Assembly: GCA_964016885.1 (NCBI GenBank)
Contig: OZ024749.1
Span: forward strand, 6,076,001-6,140,000
Origin: Eledone cirrhosa
Lineage: Eukaryota
Length of the DNA stretch: 64,000 nucleotides
Direction: 5' to 3'
Positions 3,403 to 61,903 of this stretch are shown here, piece after piece (positions within the stretch are counted from its first letter, which is position 1; each line of letters begins with the position of its first letter). The notes beneath the pieces were generated by a model, which was not told the DNA's origin, searched no databases, and saw only the letters and a program-made list of their open reading frames with translations. Made by a program: the position numbers and the translations under genes.

Positions 3403-3833
3403 GAGAAGTGTGTGGGAACAGAGTATATATATAAAATTAGAATTGGTGCTCTGAAATAGCGATATATATATGAATGTATATATAGTGTATTTTGCAATAC
3501 ACTGTCTGCTTAATTAAAAGCATTTTGAAGACCTTACGCTATTGTTTTAGAGTAGTGACAGTCTCACTTACTTTAAATTTTCAGCAAACAGGGGGAGATA
3601 AAGCTGACAGAGCTCTGTTTTGTACTATTTGATACTTATCAAAGCTAAGTACTCCACCTGTCTGCTGAAAATCATGAATGTTTGATTCTTATAGAATTCT
3701 AGTAATAATCAGGAACTGATTATACAGAGCAGTTGCCGGTCAAGCAGAAATTGAAAATTAGAATTGGTGCTCTGAAATTTCTGCTTGACTGGCAACCAGG
3801 TATGTCAACATTTATAAAACATATTTTGTATTG

Positions 3834-3888
3834 TATCTGATGAAAGTGCACCAAAATTGCCTTGGTTGCCCTTGAAATATATATAATA
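3834..3888 (+). ncRNA. Minimal hammerhead motif (family F)
   Basis: tat-CTGATGA-aag tgca ccaa..ttgg ttgc cctt-GAAA-tatata-TA-ata. Confidence 0.6.
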
Positions 3889-4026
3889 AAATAATTATGG
3901 TTTTATAAATATAGTTTCCATTTATTAATAAATTGAATATTTACTCCAGTAAACTGTTGAGTGCTTTATATCAGTTATGAAACTTTTAAGCTTGTTGAAT
4001 TCCAACAAATTAAATATAACTTCTGC

Positions 4027-4061
4027 ATATATATACATATATATATGTGTGTGTGTGTGTT

Positions 4062-31013: not shown

Positions 31014-31081
<68 letters not shown>

Positions 31082-31085
<4 letters not shown>

Positions 31086-31477
31086 CGTTTCTGAATTTGT
31101 TTAACAAGATTCTTTATCTGAAATCGTGTGTTGAAACCGATATTGTTATACTTTGGGAGGGTCATGTTGCCAATAAGAAACACACGCACCAGTTGCTTTC
31201 ACTTCAATTTATTATATATTTATAAATTTATAAATTTACAAATTTACAAAGTTATAAATTTCTGGTTGGTTGGTTGGTTCCACAACCAGATAGTTGTTTA
31301 TATATAGTCATAGTCCTTTCATCACACACTCTGTGACCTCTTCAGTGACTGGGGATTCCTTTCTTCGTTTCTGTGCCTTTCCTTTCTTCTATCCTACGCC
31401 ATATAATAAATTGAAGTGAAAGCAATGGTGCGTGTGTTTCTTATTGGCAACATGACCCTCCCAAAGTATAACAATAT
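31082..31477. mobile_element. Fold-back pLTR element, family I (tail 31082-31139; arms about 31140-31216 and 31402-31477)
   Basis: Inverted arms; hammerhead in loop; copies at 44350-44620 and 59972-60199. Confidence 0.85.
31306..31350 (-). ncRNA. Minimal hammerhead motif (family I)
   Basis: agtca-CTGAAGA-g gtcac agagtgt gtgat-GAAA-ggac-TA-tgact; 5-bp stem I. Confidence 0.7.
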
Positions 31478-31491
31478 ATAAATATATATAT

Positions 31492-33180
31492 ATATTGTTA
31501 TATTTGTGGAGGGTCATATTGTTGTAATATTATTGCCAGAAATAATAACAGAACACACTCACTCTTTTTGTATTCTATCTTTGTTTATTAGTGTGTGTTT
31601 ATATGTGTTTGTTGTTATTGTACTTGTGTATATATTTATTTATTTATATTTCTCTTAAGTCAGTATTGTTTGTTTGGGTGTTGTTATTCCATTCATTTTT
31701 TCTGTTTTGCTTGCTTCTCTGATTTGCCTACCTGTTAGGTCATTTCTATGTTTAGATATCATTTTAATTTCTATGTTGTCTATATTACCGTCATGTCTTT
31801 GTCTGGCGTGTTCGTATAGTACTGAACCGTTTTTTGTCCTTTTAGTTCCCCCTAGTGTTGGTCTACCCTTTCTCCTATGCTTCGAGCTGTCTCACCTATG
31901 TATGTTGTTGTCATGTTTCTGCAGGTACTCTCTGTACATCTTATGCTATAGACTACATTTCTAGTTTTATAGTTTGTCTGGGGGTTTACTTTACATATAA
32001 CACATTTCTCATTAGTACAGTGGGTTTTCTTAAAGGGGTATATTTTGTTGATCAGGGATTTTATGGTAGTTCCTGGATTTTCTACCACTTTAATCTTTAA
32101 GTGTGTCTTTCTTAGGGCCTTTCTACATTGGTTAGCTAATTTCCCTCCAGGGGTAGCATCCACGAACATGACACTCTGGTATCTCTGGTTGTCATACCAT
32201 GAGGTGGCTTTCCCTATCTTATGTCTAGCCCTATCTAAGCTATTCCATGATTTGCTCCTGTATAATGGGCAAATTCCTTTCATGTTCGGTTTTATGACGT
32301 TTTTATAATTCTCCGTGGCTCCTTCGAATACTCTGACTCTGTCTCTTTGGTTGTAGCCAGAGAACTGCATGTGGTTGATGAAGTGTTGGATGTGTCTTTC
32401 CCTTTCTGTTGGGTAGCACATGCGGGACACATTCTTCATCACTCGTAACAGGTCTGCGATCACAATATTAAACTTAGCACTACTGGACATTGCTGAGTTT
32501 TTGAGTATCAGGTATTTGGAGGCCTTGGGTTTAGCATAGTGTGAGTGGAGAATTTGGGCCATCTCATCTATAGTGTTAATCCAGAGTTCCGTGTCTAATA
32601 CAGGTACTCTATGGTTAGGGTGTTTGGAAGGGTAGTCGATAGTTACAGTTATACTCTGGTGTATGGAATTAGCTATCTGTTGGATGCTTTCCATTGTGCT
32701 ACATTCTAAATCATACTTGTTAGTACTCTCTTGTGGGGGTGTTCTTATTACTATATTAATGTCGTCTACGTAATGAGAGTACCTGATGAGGTCTATGGAG
32801 CTCTCTTCAAGGAGATCTTTGAGTCTCCTTTCCCACCATACCATAAATAGATTGGCATCATCACCAGCTATGCTGACGCCAATGGCTGCTCCCTCATTTT
32901 GTAGATCTTTTCACTGAATTTGAATATATGGCCCTTTAGGGTAGTTTTAATACTAGCCCCTATTGCTAGTTGGTAAGTAAGTGATAAACATTGATGGCCA
33001 AATGAATTAACTATGGAGATATAAAAGATACAGAAGCGAAACCCAACCAGACAGTGAGTGTGTTCTGTTATTATTTCTGGCAATACTTTTACAATAATAT
33101 GACCCTGCCCAAATATAACAATATTTGTTTTGACACACAATTTCATATCAAAATCCTCACAAAACAAATTCATCGCCGTT
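31492..33180 (-). mobile_element. Penelope-like retroelement, 5'-truncated, with inverted terminal repeats (31492-31563 and 33053-33123) and tail to 33180
   Basis: RT + GIY-YIG remnant between inverted termini; (TA)n on both sides. Confidence 0.9.
31670..32972 (-). pseudogene. PLE reverse transcriptase (C-terminal half) + GIY-YIG endonuclease, frameshifted with in-frame stop
   Basis: GAAIGVSIAG..ANLFM, YSHYVDD, PVLD, C..C.IC linker, NVVYSIRC..C...YIGET.R; homology continues past the stop at 31852 (SVLYEH..H, RQIREA). Confidence 0.9.
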
Positions 33181-33627
33181 ATATATATATATATATATAT
33201 AGTAGAAGTAGTAGTAGTAAAATTAAATGCAAATACCAAAATACAGATAGAACTCAATAAGAGTGGTATGTATATGTATATATATATATATATATATATA
33301 CACCTGTAGAACAAATATTTATTATTAGCACAGGTTAGAAGCTTAAGCACACAATTTCTGCTTTCACCCTTGTACAGGATCAAAATGTTTTTACTTAAAT
33401 ATTTAATCTGTGCTAATATTTATATTTATATATATATAAACGAGTAAACAAGGAAAAAAGCAGAATAGGAGAATGATGATATATATTAGTTTGAAAATTA
33501 ATATAGTATGAAATGGGGCGTAACATTCGAATTGGCTTTGCTCATCCACACATGTCTGTCTACTAACCTTGAAATTATAAAGACCAACCAGATGTGAGAA
33601 AAACCACAGACCCTCCATCTCAACTCA

Positions 33628-35750: not shown

Positions 35751-38700
35751 CACCACCCACCCCATCATCTGTGTACACTAAACACAACAGCATTTTCACC
35801 TTCACCGCCACCGCTCACTACGGCCATCATTACCACCACTATCCCATCACCGCCGCCACCACCCCTTGACTCCTTCACTGCTGCTGCCACCGCTACAGCA
35901 CCATCACTACAGTAATACGGTCGCATCACCGCCACCACTGCCTCGGTATCGACATCACCACCACCACTGTCTCAGTATCGCCAACGCCGCCAGTCTCCCA
36001 CTTCTCCCTGCTGGCTGCTACTTCCACATTATAGAATTCCTACTACTAACAAAGAGGAAGGCATCAAAATATATAGATAGACTCAAAAGAAAAAAGAAAA
36101 AACAAACAACAAAACCAAAGCAGCACAGCAACAACAGCAAAAAACGAGAAAAACAAACAGAGAAAAACAAAAACAAAAAAAGAAACCCCTAAAACGTAAA
36201 GAAAATAAGAATGAAGAGAGAAGCAGGCGGACGGACAGAGAAGAGGGGGGAAAAAGTAAAACTTAAAAAACAAAAACTAAGTCAGACATGCGAATACTAC
36301 ATTACAATGAAACTTATGCTTATTCATTTTTGGGGCCCTTTCTGCCCGTGTGTTTGTTTGTTTATGTGTGTTCGTATACAGCGTGGTGATAATGCCACAC
36401 AAGGGCCAAGTGGGATGGCGGATCCACAGATGGCTATGTAAACATACATTCGCCAATCCTCGATAAGAGTGTTTAAATATCGAACATAAACAGTTCGAAT
36501 AACGGTGAAATGGAGACTAGAACGTCATGTGACAGACTCTCACCCAACAGGTGCCCCCTGGCTCAGCAGCAGGAACCTGACTGTCAACCAAATACTGCTG
36601 ATGTTGGAGGAAGAAGAAGAAGGAAAGGGGCCAGAACCAACTGGACGAAAGAATTGAATAGAACTGTTATGCAATGCTACCTGAAAAGTAACCCCAAGGA
36701 GAGGGGCTACAGGAGACGGATGCATAACATCTGGAACGAGATTGGTTTATTTAAATTAGATGAACAAAAATTGGCCGGGCAGGCTCGGGTAATAAGAACT
36801 AATGGGTGGATAAGCGAGCTGGAACTGGAGGAACTGAGCAGAGAGAATGGCTTGGAGATGGCGGGTGTAGTATGCCAGACAAGCGAGCCGGCGGGAAATG
36901 AAGGTGAGGAGGTCCTGAGAACGGAGGAACCACCCGAAGCAGACAATGATCTGAATACTGAGATAAATAATACCTGGAACAGAGATACGGCCACTGAGGA
37001 GATGAATGCTGACGGGCTAGGACAAGATTCGGTTGACATCCTAAATTTAGTGGTAGATGAGTTGAACAATGATAGTGGGAGACCTATGAACCTAAGATTT
37101 GTAGACAGGAAAAAGTTAAAAGAAACAACAGCTAAGGTAAACAAAGTCATCCCATACCTTGAGGCGAGGAGTCTTCACCAGTGCAACAATATCCTCAAAG
37201 CAACAGCAAATACGGTGAGGAAACTACTTGGTATAAAAGCGAGAGGAAACAACAGACAAGAAAGAGCAGAGCCATGGTGGAAGAAGCGACTGAGTGGGCA
37301 AATCGGGGAAATGAGAAATGACATAGGAAAGCTTGAGTCACTACTGAATGGGACACTAAAAAACATAGGCACTAAAAATAGACTGGAAATAAAATACAAA
37401 ACTAGGAGTAAAAAGCTAAATATTATCATAGAGGAATTGAAGCAACGCATTGTAGCAAAGAGTGCCAAAATCAGGCGATACGAGAACAGAGTCAGTCAGT
37501 ATAAACAGAACCGCATGTTCGACAACAACCAGAAGATGCTGTTTGGACAGCTTGAGGGGAAAGAAAGAGGCAACGACTTGATCCCTGGGGCGGAACAAGC
37601 TAAAACATTCTGGAGAGGAATATGGGAGCAGGATGTTAGACACAATGCCCAGGCAGGGTGGATTGAGACAGTACAGAGGGAGATCGGTGAGCAGGCACAA
37701 CAACAGACTGATTTGAGTATCACAGTTGAAACTCTTAAGGGGCAAGCCAAAAAACTAACCAACTGGAAATCACCAGGCCCAGATGGTGTGCAGGGGTATT
37801 GGATTAAACATTTAACATCCCTCCACCCGAAGCTGACGGCCATGTTCAATGACTGCTTGGTGTCGGGTGAGGTGCCAGAGTGGTTGACAAAAGGTACCAC
37901 AGTTCTGATAATGAAAGACCGAATCAAGGGTAATGATGTTACCAACTATAGACCTATCACATGTCTGCCCGTAATGTGGAAACTGTTGACGAGCATTGTG
38001 TCTGAGGAAATCTACCATCACCTCCACACAAACAACTTGTTACCGGACGAACAGAAAGGATGCCGAAAGAAGTCACGTGATACAAAGGACCAGTTGCTTA
38101 TTGATAAGATGGTAATGGGGAATTGCAGGAGGAGACACACTGATCTTGCCATGGGATGGATAGACTACAGAAAGGCATTTGACATGGTGCCTCATTCCTG
38201 GATCACCAAAAGCCTGGAGATCTTCAGGGTGGCAGATAACATCAGACAGTTGCTGGGCAGGAGTATGGGGTCCTGGGAGACAGAGTTGACATCAACTGGA
38301 GTATCCTTGGGAAGCGTGAAGATCAAGAGAGGTATCTTCCAGGGAGATAGCCTGTCCCCTCTGTTGTTTGTCCTTGCCCTGATGCCCTTGACCATTATGC
38401 TGCGAAAAGTGAGAGCAGGATACAAGTTGGGAAGGGGAGAGCTTACCATCAATCACCTCCTCTTCATGGACGATCTTAAGCTCTTCGGGAAAAGTGAGAA
38501 GGAGTTGGATGTGCTTGTTGACACTGTCCGTATTTTCAGCAGTGATATATGTATGCAGTTTGGTATTGGTAAATGTGGAGTCATTGTGATGAAGAGGGGT
38601 AGGTTGAGCAGAAGTAACGGGATCCAGATACCAACAGGTGAGATGATAAAGGAAATTGACTCTGAGGAAGGATACAAGTATTTGGGCATTCTGGAGGCTG

Positions 38701-39991
38701 ATGGCATAAAGAACAAAAAAATGAGGGAATTGTTAAGAACTGAATACATTCGGAGAGTAAGGAGCGTATTGAAGTCACATCTGAACAGCAGAAATGCCAT
38801 AAGCGCAGTAAATTCCCGAGCTGTGTCTATTATTAGGTACAGTGCGGGAATTCTGAGATGGAATGTTGCTGAACAAAAAGAAATGGATAGGAAGACTAGG
38901 AAGCTATTGACTATCTACAACATGTTCCACAAGAGGAGTGATGTCGATAGACTCTACCTAAGGAGATCTGAGGGTGGAAGAGGTCTTATCAGCATAGAGG
39001 ACTGTGTTCAGATGGAGAAAAACAACCTATACAAATACGTGACCTATAGTAAGGAGCCAATGCTCAGAACTGTACTGAAGGAGGGGACAGTAGGCCAGGG
39101 GATGTCCAAGGAGGAAATAACATCAAGGAGGAAGAGCAGCCTTAAGGGAAAATCCCTTCATAGTACCTTCTTTGAGAAAACTGAATTTAGAGATCCACAG
39201 ACATGGAACTGGTTGAGAAGAGGAGACCTCAAAAAGGCTACAGAAGGAATGCTAATGGCTGCGCAGGAGCAGGCCCTCAAAACGAAGTGGTTGAAGCACC
39301 ATATCTACAAGGAGGAGGCTAGCCCACTGTGCAGGATCTGTGGAGAGAGAGAGGAGACTGTGGCTCACATTGTGTCCGAGTGTAAACACCTAGCCCAGAC
39401 CCACTATAAGGGCTGGAGACACGATGTGATGGGCAGGGTGATCCACTGGCACCTGTGCAAAGTAAACAATCTACCACATTCTGAGAAATGGTATGAGCAT
39501 AGGCCAGAGGCGGTGATGGAGAACAGTCAGGTGAAGGTGCTGTGGTATTTTAGGATACAGACGGACAAAAAACTGGAACACAATAGACCTGACCTGGTGG
39601 TTGTGGACAAAGAAAAAAGATCGTGCCTGATTGTGGATGTGGCCTGCCCGTTCGACACGAGAGTGCAAGAGAAGGAGAGGGAGAAAATTAACCGATACCA
39701 GGACCTAAAGTGGGAGGTGAAAAGGATTTGGAACTGCCATGAAGTCAAAGTGATCCCGATTGTCATAGGCGCACTGGGGACTATCTCCAAAGGTTTCCAG
39801 GGATGGTTAAAGAAAATCGGCCCCTTCACGCTTTTTGGAACGCTTCAAAAGGCTTGCTTGCTTGGAACAGCAAGAACCCTCCGATACGTCCTGAATATCT
39901 GAGGCTGCAGGTAGTGGCTTGATATTCAATCCAACGGACTTTCCAGTTAACCAACATCAATGACTGAGATTCAAGGAATAAAAATAATAAT
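35751..39991 (+). mobile_element. R4/Dong-clade non-LTR retrotransposon, apparently full length; 5' boundary uncertain
   Basis: Single long ORF; (TAA)n tract at 35692-35750 upstream and aataaaaataataat at the 3' end. Confidence 0.8.
36510..39902 (+). CDS. Reverse transcriptase + CCHC + restriction-like endonuclease (1130 aa)
   Basis: KSPGPDG, YRPITCL, IDYRKAFD, GIFQGDSLSP, HLLFMDD, YKYLG, CRICG..ETVAHIVSEC, RHD, RPD..D..K..RY motifs; no stops. Confidence 0.97.
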   Translation: METRTSCDRLSPNRCPLAQQQEPDCQPNTADVGGRRRRKGARTNWTKELNRTVMQCYLKSNPKERGYRRRMHNIWNEIGLFKLDEQKLAGQARVIRTNGWISELELEELSRENGLEMAGVVCQTSEPAGNEGEEVLRTEEPPEADNDLNTEINNTWNRDTATEEMNADGLGQDSVDILNLVVDELNNDSGRPMNLRFVDRKKLKETTAKVNKVIPYLEARSLHQCNNILKATANTVRKLLGIKARGNNRQERAEPWWKKRLSGQIGEMRNDIGKLESLLNGTLKNIGTKNRLEIKYKTRSKKLNIIIEELKQRIVAKSAKIRRYENRVSQYKQNRMFDNNQKMLFGQLEGKERGNDLIPGAEQAKTFWRGIWEQDVRHNAQAGWIETVQREIGEQAQQQTDLSITVETLKGQAKKLTNWKSPGPDGVQGYWIKHLTSLHPKLTAMFNDCLVSGEVPEWLTKGTTVLIMKDRIKGNDVTNYRPITCLPVMWKLLTSIVSEEIYHHLHTNNLLPDEQKGCRKKSRDTKDQLLIDKMVMGNCRRRHTDLAMGWIDYRKAFDMVPHSWITKSLEIFRVADNIRQLLGRSMGSWETELTSTGVSLGSVKIKRGIFQGDSLSPLLFVLALMPLTIMLRKVRAGYKLGRGELTINHLLFMDDLKLFGKSEKELDVLVDTVRIFSSDICMQFGIGKCGVIVMKRGRLSRSNGIQIPTGEMIKEIDSEEGYKYLGILEADGIKNKKMRELLRTEYIRRVRSVLKSHLNSRNAISAVNSRAVSIIRYSAGILRWNVAEQKEMDRKTRKLLTIYNMFHKRSDVDRLYLRRSEGGRGLISIEDCVQMEKNNLYKYVTYSKEPMLRTVLKEGTVGQGMSKEEITSRRKSSLKGKSLHSTFFEKTEFRDPQTWNWLRRGDLKKATEGMLMAAQEQALKTKWLKHHIYKEEASPLCRICGEREETVAHIVSECKHLAQTHYKGWRHDVMGRVIHWHLCKVNNLPHSEKWYEHRPEAVMENSQVKVLWYFRIQTDKKLEHNRPDLVVVDKEKRSCLIVDVACPFDTRVQEKEREKINRYQDLKWEVKRIWNCHEVKVIPIVIGALGTISKGFQGWLKKIGPFTLFGTLQKACLLGTARTLRYVLNI

Positions 39992-43995: not shown

Positions 43996-44334
43996 ATCAT
44001 CATCATCATCATTTTACGTCCACTTTTCCCTGCTTGCAAGGGTGGGATGGGAACTGATTCTGGCTTGATTTCTACAGCTGGATGCCCTTCCTAACACGAA
44101 CCTCATTTACAGTGAGTGCTGGGTGCTTTTTTGCCGTGGTACCTCCACGACCACTTTACAGTGGAATGATAGGGACATCAGTCCCTATCATCTCATCTCT
44201 ACAGCTGAGTAAACTGGAGCAATGTGAAATAAAGTATCTTGCTCAAGGAAACAACACATCACCCGGTCTGAGAATTGAACTCACAACCTTTCGATTGCAA
44301 GTCCAATGCTCTAACCATTAAGCCATGTGCCTCC
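43996..44334 (-). mobile_element. SINE family 1, full length
   Basis: A/B boxes and RTE-like tail on the minus strand. Confidence 0.9.
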
Positions 44335-44349
44335 ATATATATATATATA

Positions 44350-44620
44350 TACAAAAACACAAAACAAGACACACAAAAACAAGATGGCGTAGGACAGAAC
44401 AAAGGAGAGGCACAGAACAAAGAAAAGAATCCTCAGTCACTGAAGAGGTCACAGAATGTGTGACGGAAGAACTTTGACAATATATGAACAACCGTCCGGT
44501 TGTGGAACCAACCAACCAATCGGAAATTTATAAATTTTTTAATTTATAATAAACTGGAGTGAAAGCAACTGGTGCGCGTGTTTCTTATTGGCAACATGAC
44601 CCTCCCAAAGTATAACAATA
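44350..44620 (+). mobile_element. Solo pLTR of family I with degenerate hammerhead (44436-44488)
   Basis: gtca-CTGAAGA-ggtcac..gtgac-GGAA-gaac-TT-tgac; (TA)n flanks. Confidence 0.8.
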
Positions 44621-44623
44621 TAT

Positions 44624-46232: not shown

Positions 46233-46440
46233 ATAGGAACCAGTAAGACCCTGACGGCTGAGCTCAAGCCGTTTCGACGGCTAATTCTGGACAGAATAAT
46301 GAGTCCAGAATTAGCCGTCGAAACGGCTTGAGCTCAGCCGTCGGGGTCTTACTGGTTCCTATTACCCACTCTACTACCCCAAGTATTGAGTACTTTGGTG
46401 CGTTATGGTCCACCTGGTTCCTTACCACATTTCCTTCGTT
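46233..46440. mobile_element. Fold-back element, family K (60-bp arms 46233-46292 and 46303-46362, tail to 46440) with the 3' half of a hammerhead
   Basis: GAAA-cggct..agccg-TC on both arms; core truncated at the apex (taatga); (TA)n flanks. Confidence 0.8.
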
Positions 46441-46465
46441 ATATATATATATATATATACATATC

Positions 46466-56470: not shown

Positions 56471-56710
56471 TTTTTATTATTATTATTATTTGTATAAATA
56501 TGCAACTTAACAATATTATGCATATTCACAATTGACAATGCATATAATGCTGAAACTGGTATATTAAATGCAGAAATATCCACATTGTAAATAAATTAAT
56601 GTTGGGATATTTCACTGAAATAATCTCTTCAGCATTTTCTACTGAAAAAATATTTTTCCTTTCTATTATTTGTTTTTATATATATCAACTCATGTGTTAC
56701 TTTTGTACAT

Positions 56711-56757
<47 letters not shown>

Positions 56758-56759
56758 TA

Positions 56760-57381
56760 CTCGAGAGAAGGCTACGTTGGTATGGACACGTGATGCGCAT
56801 GAAAGTCGATAGCTGTATAACAAAGTGCAGGGCAATAAAGATAGACGGTAGCCACGGAATAGGCAGACCTAGAAAAACCTGGGACGAGCTGATAAACTCC
56901 GACCTCACACACTTACACCTCTCCAAGACAATGCCACTGGGCCGAGACCTTTGGCGGTACTCAGTAACAGAGAAGACCCGCCTTACCTAAATACATAGTA
57001 AAACCTACTACAGTCAGTAGGCATCTCTAACAAAATAACCCCCGTCCCACCACCCCCACCCCATCCACACCGCCCCTTCTATGTAAAGTTATGTTGGTGC
57101 CACACCATCCAGGCCGAAACAAATGAGATTGTGTAGGTGTCACGACAAAAAAACACACAGTCCACGCTGTAATGTGGCCGTGTAGCAACACGGTAAAAAC
57201 CTCCCAGACCCACACTGTAAATGTGGTTGGTGTTAGGAAGGGCATCCAACTGTAGAAAACCTGCCAGACAGTCCTATGCGAGCAAGACAATCACTCTTGC
57301 CTCAAGTGGGAAAACCCCCGTCCAAACACATGCAAGCGTGGAACACGGACGTTAAACGTTGATGATGATGATGATGATGAT
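56760..57381 (+). mobile_element. RTE LINE 3' end with complete 3'UTR and (GAT)n tail
   Basis: ERRLRWYGHVMR..GRPRKTW..EKTRLT* (stop 56990) then UTR. Confidence 0.9.
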
Positions 57382-57396
57382 ATATATATATATATA

Positions 57397-57796
57397 TTTT
57401 GAGTATATGTTGGTTGTATACCAACACCTCAGTATGCAGATTGGAACACTCGACAAAGTGCGCAGGTTGGTTTGGTTACTCCGGAGTAATGTAAATAAAA
57501 TAAAATAAAATAAATAAGTCAAATGTTTAAAATTTGGCTTCGTTTATTACTGCTATATATATTTCGGTGACAGCCATCTTTGGCTGTGACCTCTTCAGAC
57601 AGTCCGAATTAGTGTGGTAGAGACGAGTACACATGTTGTTGAGGTGTTTAACTTTGTCAATTCTCTGATATACCCACTAACACACTAATTTGGACTGCCT
57701 GAAGAGGTCACAGCCAAAGATGGCTGTCACCAAAATATATATATAGCAGTAATAAATGAAGCCAAATTTTAAAAATTTAACTTATTTATTTTATTT

Positions 57797-57802
<6 letters not shown>
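57397..57802. mobile_element. Fold-back hammerhead element, family C, long-loop copy
   Basis: Minus hammerhead 57549-57603 with intact core; plus copy 57694-57750 with G12A; tail matches 1754-1848. Confidence 0.85.
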
Positions 57803-57851
<49 letters not shown>

Positions 57852-58045
57852 ATGTAGAAAAGTAACACATGAGTTGATATATATAAAAACAAATAATAGA
57901 AAGGAAAAATATTTTTTCAGTAGAAAATGCTGAAGAGATTCTTTCAGTGTAATATCCCAAAAATTAATTTATTTACAATGTGGATATTTCTGCATTTAAT
58001 ATACCGGTTTCAGATTCAGAGCCTAATAATATCATATATATATAT

Positions 58046-59928: not shown

Positions 59929-59971
<43 letters not shown>

Positions 59972-59975
<4 letters not shown>

Positions 59976-60191
59976 TTTATGAATTTGTTTAGCAGGATTC
60001 TTTATCTGAAAACGTGTGTTGAAACCGATATTGTTCTACTTTGGGAGGGTCATGTTGCCAATAAGAAACACACGCACCAGTTGCTTTCACTTCAATTTAT
60101 TATAATAAATTTATAAATTTATTATAATAAATTGAAGTGAAAGCAACTGGTGCGTGTGTTTCTTATTGGCAACATGACCCTCCCAAAGTAG

Positions 60192-60199
<8 letters not shown>
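59972..60199. mobile_element. Fold-back element, family I: perfect 172-bp palindrome 60028-60199 plus tail
   Basis: Apex between 60113 and 60114; (TA)n flanks. Confidence 0.9.
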
Positions 60200-60226
<27 letters not shown>

Positions 60227-60353
60227 GGAGTTGGGACCCCGATTGCTGAGCTCCTGCCATTGCAACAGCTAGTTCCGAACACACACATATATATATACAG
60301 TCACACACACACACATATATATATACAGTCACACACACACACATATATATATA

Positions 60354-61243
60354 CAGGGTGAGGATGATAAATGTTTTCAAGATTACTGTCTATGAAAAAA
60401 TAACACAGTTGTTTAATTTTTTAAGATATATTTATCAAACTTGGGTCAGTTTGTCTTCATGACTTGTTCTTTCAATCTCACTCGATAAACCCATTGGCTT
60501 TGATGAAGGCCTCAAGGCGGCCTCGGAACCAGCTACAGGCCTTCATCACTGTCCCCCGACTTAAGCCCCTAAAGGCACTTGTGATCCTAGCCTTCAGATT
60601 GTCTTTCGTATTGCAGCTAGATCTGTTGGTGTCTCGTTCCACTGCGCCCCATGCAAAGAAGTTGAGGGGGTTGCAGTCAGGCGAGCTGGGAGGCCGGATG
60701 TCAGGTGAAGTGTGGTCGACAAAGTTCTCTGACAGCCAGGCTTGGGTCTTTCGGCTGGTATGGCAGGGCGCTGAGTCTTGCTGCTACACGTACGGCCTAC
60801 CTGCAGCTACCTGGTCGATCCAGGTCTTTACTACCTCGCTCAGAACGCGGATGTAGCCATCGGTGTTCAGCTTAAGACTTTCAGGGAAGAAGTGAGGTGG
60901 CATGACATCACCTTGACTGCTGACAACACCTAAGACCAATTTTGTCGCTGGAAACTTTGTCTGCATGACTCTGGGCACATCTTTGGATGAGACAGCGAGC
61001 CACCTGTTGTTCTAGGAGTTGATCTTCTGGTCCTTATCTGTCCTCCCGGCGCGGATTCCAAGAAACACTCCGTGTCTCTTCCACAAATTTGGAGGTTCAA
61101 AATTATTCATAATCAATTATTCTGAACATAAATAATGGAAATATAGTCACTGTTTTTATGAAGACAAGAGTGACAATGGAAGTAAAAAGAATTTGCATAA
61201 AATTAGCAGTTGAAAATTGCGAACAAATATCGTCCACACCCTG
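60354..61243 (-). mobile_element. Tc1/mariner DD37D (maT-type) transposon, internally deleted
   Basis: TIRs cagggtgaggatgata / tatcgtccacaccctg with TA TSD. Confidence 0.9.
60478..61031 (-). pseudogene. DD37D transposase catalytic domain remnant
   Basis: QQDSAPCH...PPSSPDCNPLNF: 37 residues between D2 and the D3 position (now N); two in-frame stops. Confidence 0.88.
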
Positions 61244-61903
61244 TATATATATACACATATATATGTGTGTACAAACATACACACCCTGATTCACAATCAA
61301 TAAGTTGATTTGCTTTCAAATATCTCATTTTCTATTATAATTCATAATATTATTTTTCTTGTTAATTTTTTTTCTTGTCTTGGAATTTTTAATTTTCTAT
61401 CATATCATTTCTTGTAGGAGAAGGCAAAAGAGAAGAGAGGGGAGTCCTACATGTTTACGATTCCGTGGAAATCTACCAAAGTTTACAGAAGAAAAGAACA
61501 AAGAGATGAGAAGGGAGAAGAGAGCAGAGGATATACTGAATGGTGCGGGAGAGCTGAATTTAATAAGATGAGAGGGGAAAATAGATCCCATGACTTTGAA
61601 AAGAAATATTCTATAATGTATTAATAAATCACCTGCTAATCTAATTAATGTAATATATGGTGGAGTGCTGGTTGGTAGCAGTTGGGTTAGGTATATGGCT
61701 TCCAGCCTTTACATATTCTTATTATTAGGCAGATATATCTATAGATATATATTAATCAATGTTTCTGGTTGCCATTGTTATTGTTGTTGGTTGTGTGTTG
61801 TTGGTGTTGGTTGTGTGTTGTGTGATTCTTTTTTTGTGTTCTTTTTTTTTTTATTAAATCAGCATTGATAAGGTCATTTTCTTCTAAATGATTATTAAAT
61901 TGG

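Follow-up and report, generated by a model that had tools for sequence, protein, structure and literature searches.

Tailed and tail-less 3′ ends are paired in head-to-head insertions of Penelope-like elements in Eledone cirrhosa

Introduction

The window described here, i.e. the whole 64,000-nt stretch of Eledone cirrhosa DNA that has been analysed (contig OZ024749.1, positions 6,076,001 to 6,140,000), contains a broken Penelope-like element (PLE) flanked by inverted repeats and, next to it, a short hairpin of similar build, hairpin I. This raises the question of how the hairpins are related to the PLE and how both are made. In the available text of Craig et al. (2021, PMC8557442) and Frangieh et al. 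(2024, PMC11167929), the formation of PLE inverted copies and tails is stated to be open. Publications already describe inverted truncated copies, tails on one side, (TA)n targeting and pLTR hammerheads, and the long element of the window, which belongs to a family that we term P, is itself ordinary. The present analysis adds counts of how the two end types are paired and a description of 5′ hot spots. No paper with a pairing count or run-off hot spots has been found in the literature searched, which left out most subscription papers.

The long element of the window

The long element spans 31492-33182 in (TA)n and is a 5′-truncated PLE with a reverse transcriptase (RT) together with a GIY-YIG at its C terminus (Table 1). 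A masked self-search of the window recovers its inverted repeat (31492-31563 / 33053-33124; 72 nt, 93%, E = 2e-21), which is followed by a one-sided tail of 58 nt (33125-33182), and both outer ends abut (TA)n. The first-pass annotation had described a PLE ORF remnant between inverted repeats with a one-sided tail, and this description is confirmed. The RT motifs (GAAIG...YVDD) and the GIY-YIG (VVYSIRC...YIGET) can be read in the 352-aa open piece; a Pfam search of this piece returned no match. The ORF is frameshifted upstream, is 5′-truncated, and has a premature stop after ERVDQH.

The copy is built from a long tail-less arm (31492-32966) joined head to head with a short tailed arm (32972-33182). 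The inner junction is located at 32966/32972 and not at 33052; the stretch 32972-33052, 81 nt of the loop, belongs to the tail arm and continues it upstream. On the tail-less side, positions 3615 to 4003 of the full-length yardstick are mostly gone, with 3732-3754 alone kept, and it is because of this deletion of ~400 nt of 3′ UTR that the repeat is just 72 nt long. The 1.5-kb loop, which includes the 81 nt of the other arm and has lost the ~400 nt, is therefore neither the record of one RT run nor intact. In public contigs, the sequence at 31567 runs on into 33046-33050 on the opposite strand; the window's own P junction was not bridged by contigs of three runs. The copy is 88% identical to a full-length P copy, and its two arms differ by 7%.

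Table 1. Features of families P and Q in the window. Coordinates are those of the 64,000-nt stretch.
Feature	Position	Strand	Description
Q tail (hairpin I)	31080..31139	-	60 nt; in full-length copies it holds codons ~9-28 of the Q ORF; abuts (TA)n
Tail-side arm of hairpin I	31080..31402	-	The Q unit's final 323 nt (4113 to 3791, 97.8%); 5′ end in the hot spot at a YY1-like motif
Candidate type I hammerhead-like motif	31323..31351	-	Minimal; approximate bounds; core at 31345, with stem II, GAAA, a short stem III and a stem I of 5 bp
Tail-less arm of hairpin I	31401..31477	+	77 nt; Q 3976-4053 (98.7%); 2-nt overlap with the other arm
TA spacer	31478..31491	.	14 nt between hairpin I and the P copy
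Tail-less 3′ end of the P copy	31492..31567	-	Contains the ORF's ATG, as in the pLTR of full-length copies
Remnant P 3′ UTR	31568..31647	-	Lacks ~400 nt present in full-length copies; no hammerhead core or YY1-like motif
Open piece of the P ORF	31852..32910	-	352 aa, interrupted at either side; RT motifs 4-5, thumb, CX4CX2C linker, GIY-YIG
Head-to-head junction	32966..32972		Junction of the two P arms
Tail-bearing P arm	32972..33182	+	Short, ~211 nt including the 58-nt tail; ends in (TA)n
Older single-arm Q copy	44384..44621	+	Tail-less; 83%
Second family Q hairpin	59968..60199	.	Both arms end at Q 3955; no loop

Hairpin I and the full-length families P and Q

Judged by sequence identity, hairpin I represents the 3′ end of another autonomous family, Q, which is a sister of P; it is not a product of the P element in the window. 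It maps at 98% DNA identity to the ends of family Q, and full-length tandem Q units are flanked by family I termini at 97-98%, with the ATG inside the arm. The Q ORF (1229 aa, in a tandem unit of 4113 nt) has 65% amino-acid identity to P over 792 aa. The termini and tail of the long element had been aligned with family I in the first-pass annotation; the alignment stands for the P tail and for roughly 30 nt at the arm end (77% over 77 nt, E = 7e-9), while the remaining arm aligns only with gaps. Hairpin I is 2% diverged from young Q copies versus 12% for the P copy from young P copies, and the two are likely separate insertion events, 14 nt apart in one TA tract.

Among 30 tail-selected Q loci, a sense ORF ends 434-592 nt upstream in 13, and an inverted ORF is present in 2. 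One ORF-bearing Q locus (L056) shares the architecture of the window's long element. The hammerhead-like motif of Q, located in the hairpin I loop, passes a motif scan with stems I-III, with a folding z-score no better than that of shuffles; an Rfam search for the hammerhead-like motifs gave no match.

Relatives of the P protein piece are numerous in the 3.0-Gb genome searched, with 115 scored among 28,710 candidates at 88-90% identity. Full-length P copies, like those of Q, occur in partial tandems that form pLTRs (unit of 4133 nt for P). The ATG of the 1210-aa P ORF is inside the arm, which makes the arm the end of the pLTR and the tail the ~19 codons that follow. Inverted 5′-truncated copies with a one-sided tail have been seen in both families. 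Two tail lengths, about 43 and 58 nt, are found in family P (L032, L039, L044, L047, L054, L061, L062, L064), which gives three 3′ ends in all. In the P pLTR, the hammerhead-like motif is represented by its core alone, which is deleted in the window copy.

Both P and Q have a single ORF with RT and C-terminal GIY-YIG, as read directly from the motifs. Pfam and PDB sequence searches with the PLE proteins gave no match; distant homologues carry PF00078 and PF01541, and the best named match is a protein labelled Octopus vulgaris (68%). A CCHH motif is present, with two Cys between GIY and YIG (YSIRCTEGTC...YIG...DQH...YEH), by comparison by eye with Fig. S2 of PMC8557442. The P linker reads CTNRKCIIC, 7 residues, CKTRNVVY, and matches the Nematis rows of the same figure. 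By this short CX2-5CXXC linker before the GIY-YIG, P can be assigned, by eye from motifs, as a putative Nematis-type element. The other clades considered were rejected: the long spacer (about 25 aa) after CXXC of Neptune is absent, Penelope/Poseidon elements have no zinc linker and P has one, and the endonuclease is C-terminal, not N-terminal as in Naiad. An Asn-rich low-complexity insert has also been observed at residues ~245-410 of P0001 (L051), in an intact ORF; comparable inserts occur in rotifer Penelope copies (PMC3846280).

Pairing of the tailed and tail-less ends

With 17 duplicates dropped, 129 loci mapped on one natural Q unit gave 55 two-sided insertions, 48 one-sided insertions and 26 unresolved blocks, the last of which were dropped. 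These loci are the top-scoring, mostly young, copies. Two fixed 3′ ends are found per family, one with the tail and one without. In 52 of the 55 two-sided Q insertions, a tailed end is paired with a tail-less end; three insertions are tail/tail, and none is tail-less/tail-less. The tail played no part in the choice of the sets selected by ORF or by arm, and there 28 of 31 insertions pair the two end types (p = 2.3e-6 versus the 50% maximum under independence). In family P, all 14 cases resolved by eye, among 33 loci, are mixed. This near-constant pairing, together with the frequent stop of copies at one spot (see below), is likely a trace of the way in which the enzyme primes the two strands of the target.

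Either arm of a mixed insertion can bear the tail: it is the longer one in 22 of 39 and the shorter one in 11, and in 6 the two arms are level. In one insertion (L290), one arm is 30 nt long and consists of tail only, without sequence in common with the other arm, and single-arm Q insertions use either end (7 tailed and 11 tail-less in the ORF-selected set). The two arms of an insertion vary in length independently of each other, and the loop corresponds to the difference between them, altered by later deletions. The claim that loop length reflects how far reverse transcription ran fails on these grounds, and short arms, in addition, stop at the hot spots described below. Long arms co-terminate within 30 nt in 3 of 11 cases, against a shuffled mean of 0.9 (p = 0.047), which is a weak signal.

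Both Q 3′ ends read AATAT/CG, and TA is present on both flanks in 38 of 42 insertions. The 42 inner junctions comprise 24 with microhomology overlaps of 1-8 nt, 4 blunt joins, 13 with insertions and 1 with a longer overlap. Some of the junction insertions are short local fold-backs (L205, L256, L024), and loop-free palindromes have been found as well (L236, L242, L026). Over 40 insertions, the median divergence between an insertion's own arms is 0.85%, compared with 1.0% for the nearest other copy and 3.6% for a typical other copy; the partner arm is as close as the nearest other copy in 24 of the 40. Arm identity does not distinguish between a single RNA, a single donor locus and gene conversion at a later time.

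Hot spots of the 5′ ends

In the tail- and arm-selected sets, 27 of 92 Q 5′ ends fall in Q 3770-3794, compared with 14 in the flanking 175 nt; one of the 27 (L253) is a misalignment, which brings the count to 26 of 92. The ends are spread over 3771-3792 in several sequence variants, and the 5′ end of hairpin I, at 3791, is inside this hot spot. The hot spot sits between an NRF1-like (3748) and a YY1-like (3788) motif, an arrangement that we take to be promoter-like, and 55-75 nt above the hammerhead core. A weaker cluster (9 of 92) at 3870-3894 coincides with the predicted hammerhead cleavage site, which is also a TA palindrome.

Hot spots have also been found in other hairpin families, which are named by window coordinate. 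In family 46233, 18 of 25 ends are within 12 nt, at a site that the sampling pattern does not cover. The hot spots of families 1961, 46233 and 30001 are located 32-36 nt below a TATA-like box (background 4-5%); no TATA-like box was found above those of 10651, 1563 and 446. The hot spots of 1961, 46233, 30001 and 446 lie just above the hammerhead core region. Those of 1961, 30001 and 446 are near the query 5′ end, so selection may inflate these clusters. An origin of the hot spots from spliced RNA has been rejected, as there is no shared upstream exon at the junctions in five families.

Other hairpin families and neighbouring repeats

Seven families besides I have been tested, with 25-30 loci each and ±1.5 kb of flanking sequence. 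Sense ORFs of the family's own were found within this distance in 8 of 30 loci of family 30001, 3 of 30 of 1563, 3 of 30 of 446 and 1 of 30 of 1961. The ORF is located between the inverted arms in extended loci L296-L298, L300, L301 and L303; nine extended 1961 loci (L304-L312) showed no ORF. The single 1961 locus with an ORF has a 3′ UTR in common with two others up to about -640. Unlinked Hydra-type ORFs occur downstream in 1-2 of 30 loci per family, so that ORF links based on a single locus are weak. Ties are likewise weak for family 10651 (inverted ORFs in 2 of 25 loci) and family 46233 (1 of 25 contiguous, two further matches being neighbours). Family 56550, for which the query came from the tail-less side, had no convincing PLE ORF in 25 loci.

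The ORFs of 446, 1563, 1961 and 30001 barely align with P, and a profile built from P and 86 homologues recovered none of them because they belong to another clade. All four have a CxCX5C linker and no CCHH. An FDV/I-x-MG..DSA RT4 motif, together with CxxC and CxH around the E/N residues, is found in 446, 1563 and 30001, neither being seen in the single 1961 piece. From these ORF pieces, which do not include the DKT and RWK regions, the four families can be classed as putative Hydra-type PLEs. As the hairpin families belong to distinct PLEs (P/Q and Hydra-type), each family would have its own enzyme.

The proposal that a PLE RT-endonuclease makes the hairpins is thus upheld in part. The architecture is common to all of them, and family I and families 446, 1563, 1961 and 30001 adjoin sense-oriented PLE ORFs at family-specific distances; the refuting condition given in the first-pass annotation, hairpin families that never adjoin PLE ORFs, is not borne out by these five. 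The part that does not hold is the attribution to the PLE of the window, as family I has its own full-length ORF and the others have Hydra-type ORFs.

Family 46233 (window 46233-46442) was sampled by a 41-nt pattern, with 6821 matches and none to the reversed control; a sequence search recovered no copy, including that of the window. Its members are mostly near loop-free palindromes. At window 56550-58013, the 1.06-kb loop of an inverted pair consists of later insertions (an RT fragment, SINE-like pieces and hairpin 57495-57804) in a central (TA)n. One and the same family 446 insertion is found five times at L124-L128 (G000:C1:143.3-143.7 Mb), as in a segmental array. Further hairpins are located at window 10416, 34704, 45108 and 58093.

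Repeats of other kinds are also present in the window. An uninterrupted 1141-aa non-LTR retrotransposon ORF (36477-39902, plus strand) matches RVT_1 and, weakly, zf-RVT, and is presumably an R4/Dong-type element. A SINE-like repeat, which has other copies, is found at 44013-44334, with a weak tRNA match at 44268-44325. At 60344-61253, 26-nt inverted ends enclose short ORFs (60478-60783), presumably a Tc1/mariner transposase remnant.

Proposed mechanism and alternatives

On balance, we lean towards the reading that the 5′-truncated head-to-head insertions of P and Q arise by twin target-primed reverse transcription with two fixed sites, and that the short hairpins are its run-off products. The RT-endonuclease would nick both strands of the (TA)n target. 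Synthesis of one cDNA would then begin at the end of the tail, and that of the other some 60 nt further upstream, at an internal site. Two RTs (a dimer) may share one RNA, or RNA from one donor, and would therefore be unable to take the same start site. The two cDNAs would stop independently and would then be joined 3′ to 3′ by microhomology. In the short hairpins, priming would occur in the transcript's 5′ pLTR, and the RT would run off at the transcription start, giving Q arms of about 335 and 275 nt. In L1 twin priming, two cDNAs are primed on opposite target strands and joined by microhomology; the internal site of the second primer varies, and the 3′ end is left unduplicated. Here, unlike in L1, both starts are fixed, and the 3′ end is therefore duplicated as an inverted repeat. 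Several observations count against twin priming, namely the three tail/tail insertions, the weak co-termination of long arms, the families without a TATA-like box (10651, 1563, 446), and the fold-back insertions at several junctions, which self-priming predicts.

Biochemical work on PAc, a Poseidon PLE, offers a precedent: in vitro, the enzyme cleaves both strands and extends them, the start sites being two RNA positions that delimit the tail, and a dimer has been predicted (PMC11167929). Counting against the proposal, the start sites are reported to be used without strand difference and without homology to the target (PMC11167929); both Q sites, unlike these, end in ATAT. End pairing and 5′ hot spots are not treated in the available text of that paper.

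The most serious alternative, which nevertheless appears unlikely to us, is self-priming, in which a hairpin is copied from a single cDNA (or an antisense RNA) that has folded back on itself, and a staggered endonuclease cut leaves the one-sided tail. Self-priming has been proposed from junction palindromes in rotifer PLEs (PMC3846280), and an "EN-mediated resolution" has been put forward (PMC8557442). It accounts for the near-identical arms, the loop-free palindromes and the junction fold-backs, and the staggered cut would pair the two end types too. Insertions with the tail on the shorter arm, however, go beyond a simple fold-back of one cDNA unless an extra cut is added, and the tail-only arm of L290 and the use of both ends by single-arm copies are also difficult to reconcile with it. 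Both ends, moreover, match the in vitro RT start sites of a related PLE (PMC11167929). A rather improbable alternative concerns the hot spots alone, which could reflect RT stalling, or a short non-autonomous master (solo pLTR) copied in trans, in place of run-off from a full transcript. The hot spots just above the hammerhead core region in four families and the weaker Q cluster at the predicted cleavage site would fit, and pLTR-derived non-autonomous retrozymes have been reported (10.64898/2026.07.22.740005). However, the several variants among the Q ends argue against one master, the distance of the main Q hot spot from the core also counts against this alternative, and in 3 of 6 families the position of the TATA-like box is consistent with a start site.

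The earlier reading in its literal form, i.e. non-autonomous hairpins made by the PLE of the window with the loop as a measure of the RT run, is highly improbable. The homology of the P and family I tails and arm ends speaks for it, but it is refuted for family I, which is nearly identical to the ends of its own autonomous family, and it is further opposed by the Hydra-type ORFs of other families and by the composition of the P loop. It could hold for families without a linked ORF, e.g. 56550. That the hairpins are DNA-transposon MITEs, or palindromes from library preparation or assembly, is almost certainly wrong. Their ends are inverted, long palindromes can arise in sequencing, and none of the contigs listed bridged the junction in the window. 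Yet the ends are fixed at two sites, the arms differ by mutations, as in the window P copy, and the junctions have microhomology. The first-pass annotation had named TIR/TSD signatures of DNA transposons as a sign against its reading. The symmetric fixed termini of a TIR DNA transposon were not found; the tail is one-sided, the inner ends are variable and RT/GIY-YIG coding sequence lies inside.

If twin priming with two fixed sites is accepted, a wider reading may be considered, which we hold more tentatively and not quite as an expectation. The genome would then be a large natural record of unresolved PLE integration, in which a dimeric RT-endonuclease and two fixed sites on one RNA force the tailed and tail-less pairing. 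Thousands of hairpins would be strong-stop-like leader run-offs with inner ends that mark each family's transcription start, in Nematis- and Hydra-type families alike. A practical consequence of the analysis is that many short genomic hairpins resembling MITEs or structured RNAs are PLE ends. The pairing rule and the 5′ hot spots provide countable constraints that separate twin priming from self-priming.

Comparison with known systems

P and Q resemble canonical EN+ PLEs of the Nematis type, with a single ORF for RT and C-terminal GIY-YIG and two Cys located between the GIY and the YIG (Craig et al. 2021, PMC8557442). The CX2-5CXXC linker of P has the short spacing of Nematis_C4 and Nematis_Pp (Fig. 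S2 of PMC8557442). Partial tandems, the inverted 5′-truncated copy, the one-sided tail and (TA)n targets are common to P/Q and published PLEs (PMC8557442). The elements described here differ in their ORF of 1210-1270 aa with an Asn-rich insert and in their tails of 58-60 nt (43 in some P copies), compared with 30-40 bp (PMC8557442).

PAc, the Poseidon of Anolis, is similar to Q in that two 3′ ends in the first ORF codons bound the tail (Frangieh et al. 2024, PMC11167929). The target is AT-rich in both, and PAc has a hammerhead in the pLTR (PMC11167929), where Q has a candidate hammerhead-like motif. On the other hand, PAc has no zinc linker and starts at about +111-118, at sites that are not homologous to the target, whereas the Q ends are located at +26 and +86, both in AATAT (PMC11167929 for PAc). 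The Penelope copies of Adineta vaga share a pLTR that contains the first codons and TATA/Inr, a tail that is optional and found on one of the inverted pLTRs, Asn-rich inserts and palindromic junctions; they differ in their low copy number and have been attributed to self-priming on an antisense template (PMC3846280).

The non-LTR retrozymes (10.64898/2026.07.22.740005; PMC4209133) are, like the hairpins, short, non-coding and pLTR-related, and they bear hammerheads, of which the hairpins have candidate motifs. The retrozymes are head-to-tail tandem repeats, whereas the hairpins are head-to-head truncation products of coding families and are continuous with an ORF, so an identification as retrozymes has been rejected. 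The Hydra clade (PMC8557442) is similar to families 446, 1563, 1961 and 30001 in the CxCX5C linker, the hammerhead-like cores and the (TA)n targets. This clade has been reported mainly from cnidarians and a few molluscs (PMC8557442), whereas here several high-copy families, with 3′ UTRs of 0.7-1.3 kb, are found in one genome.
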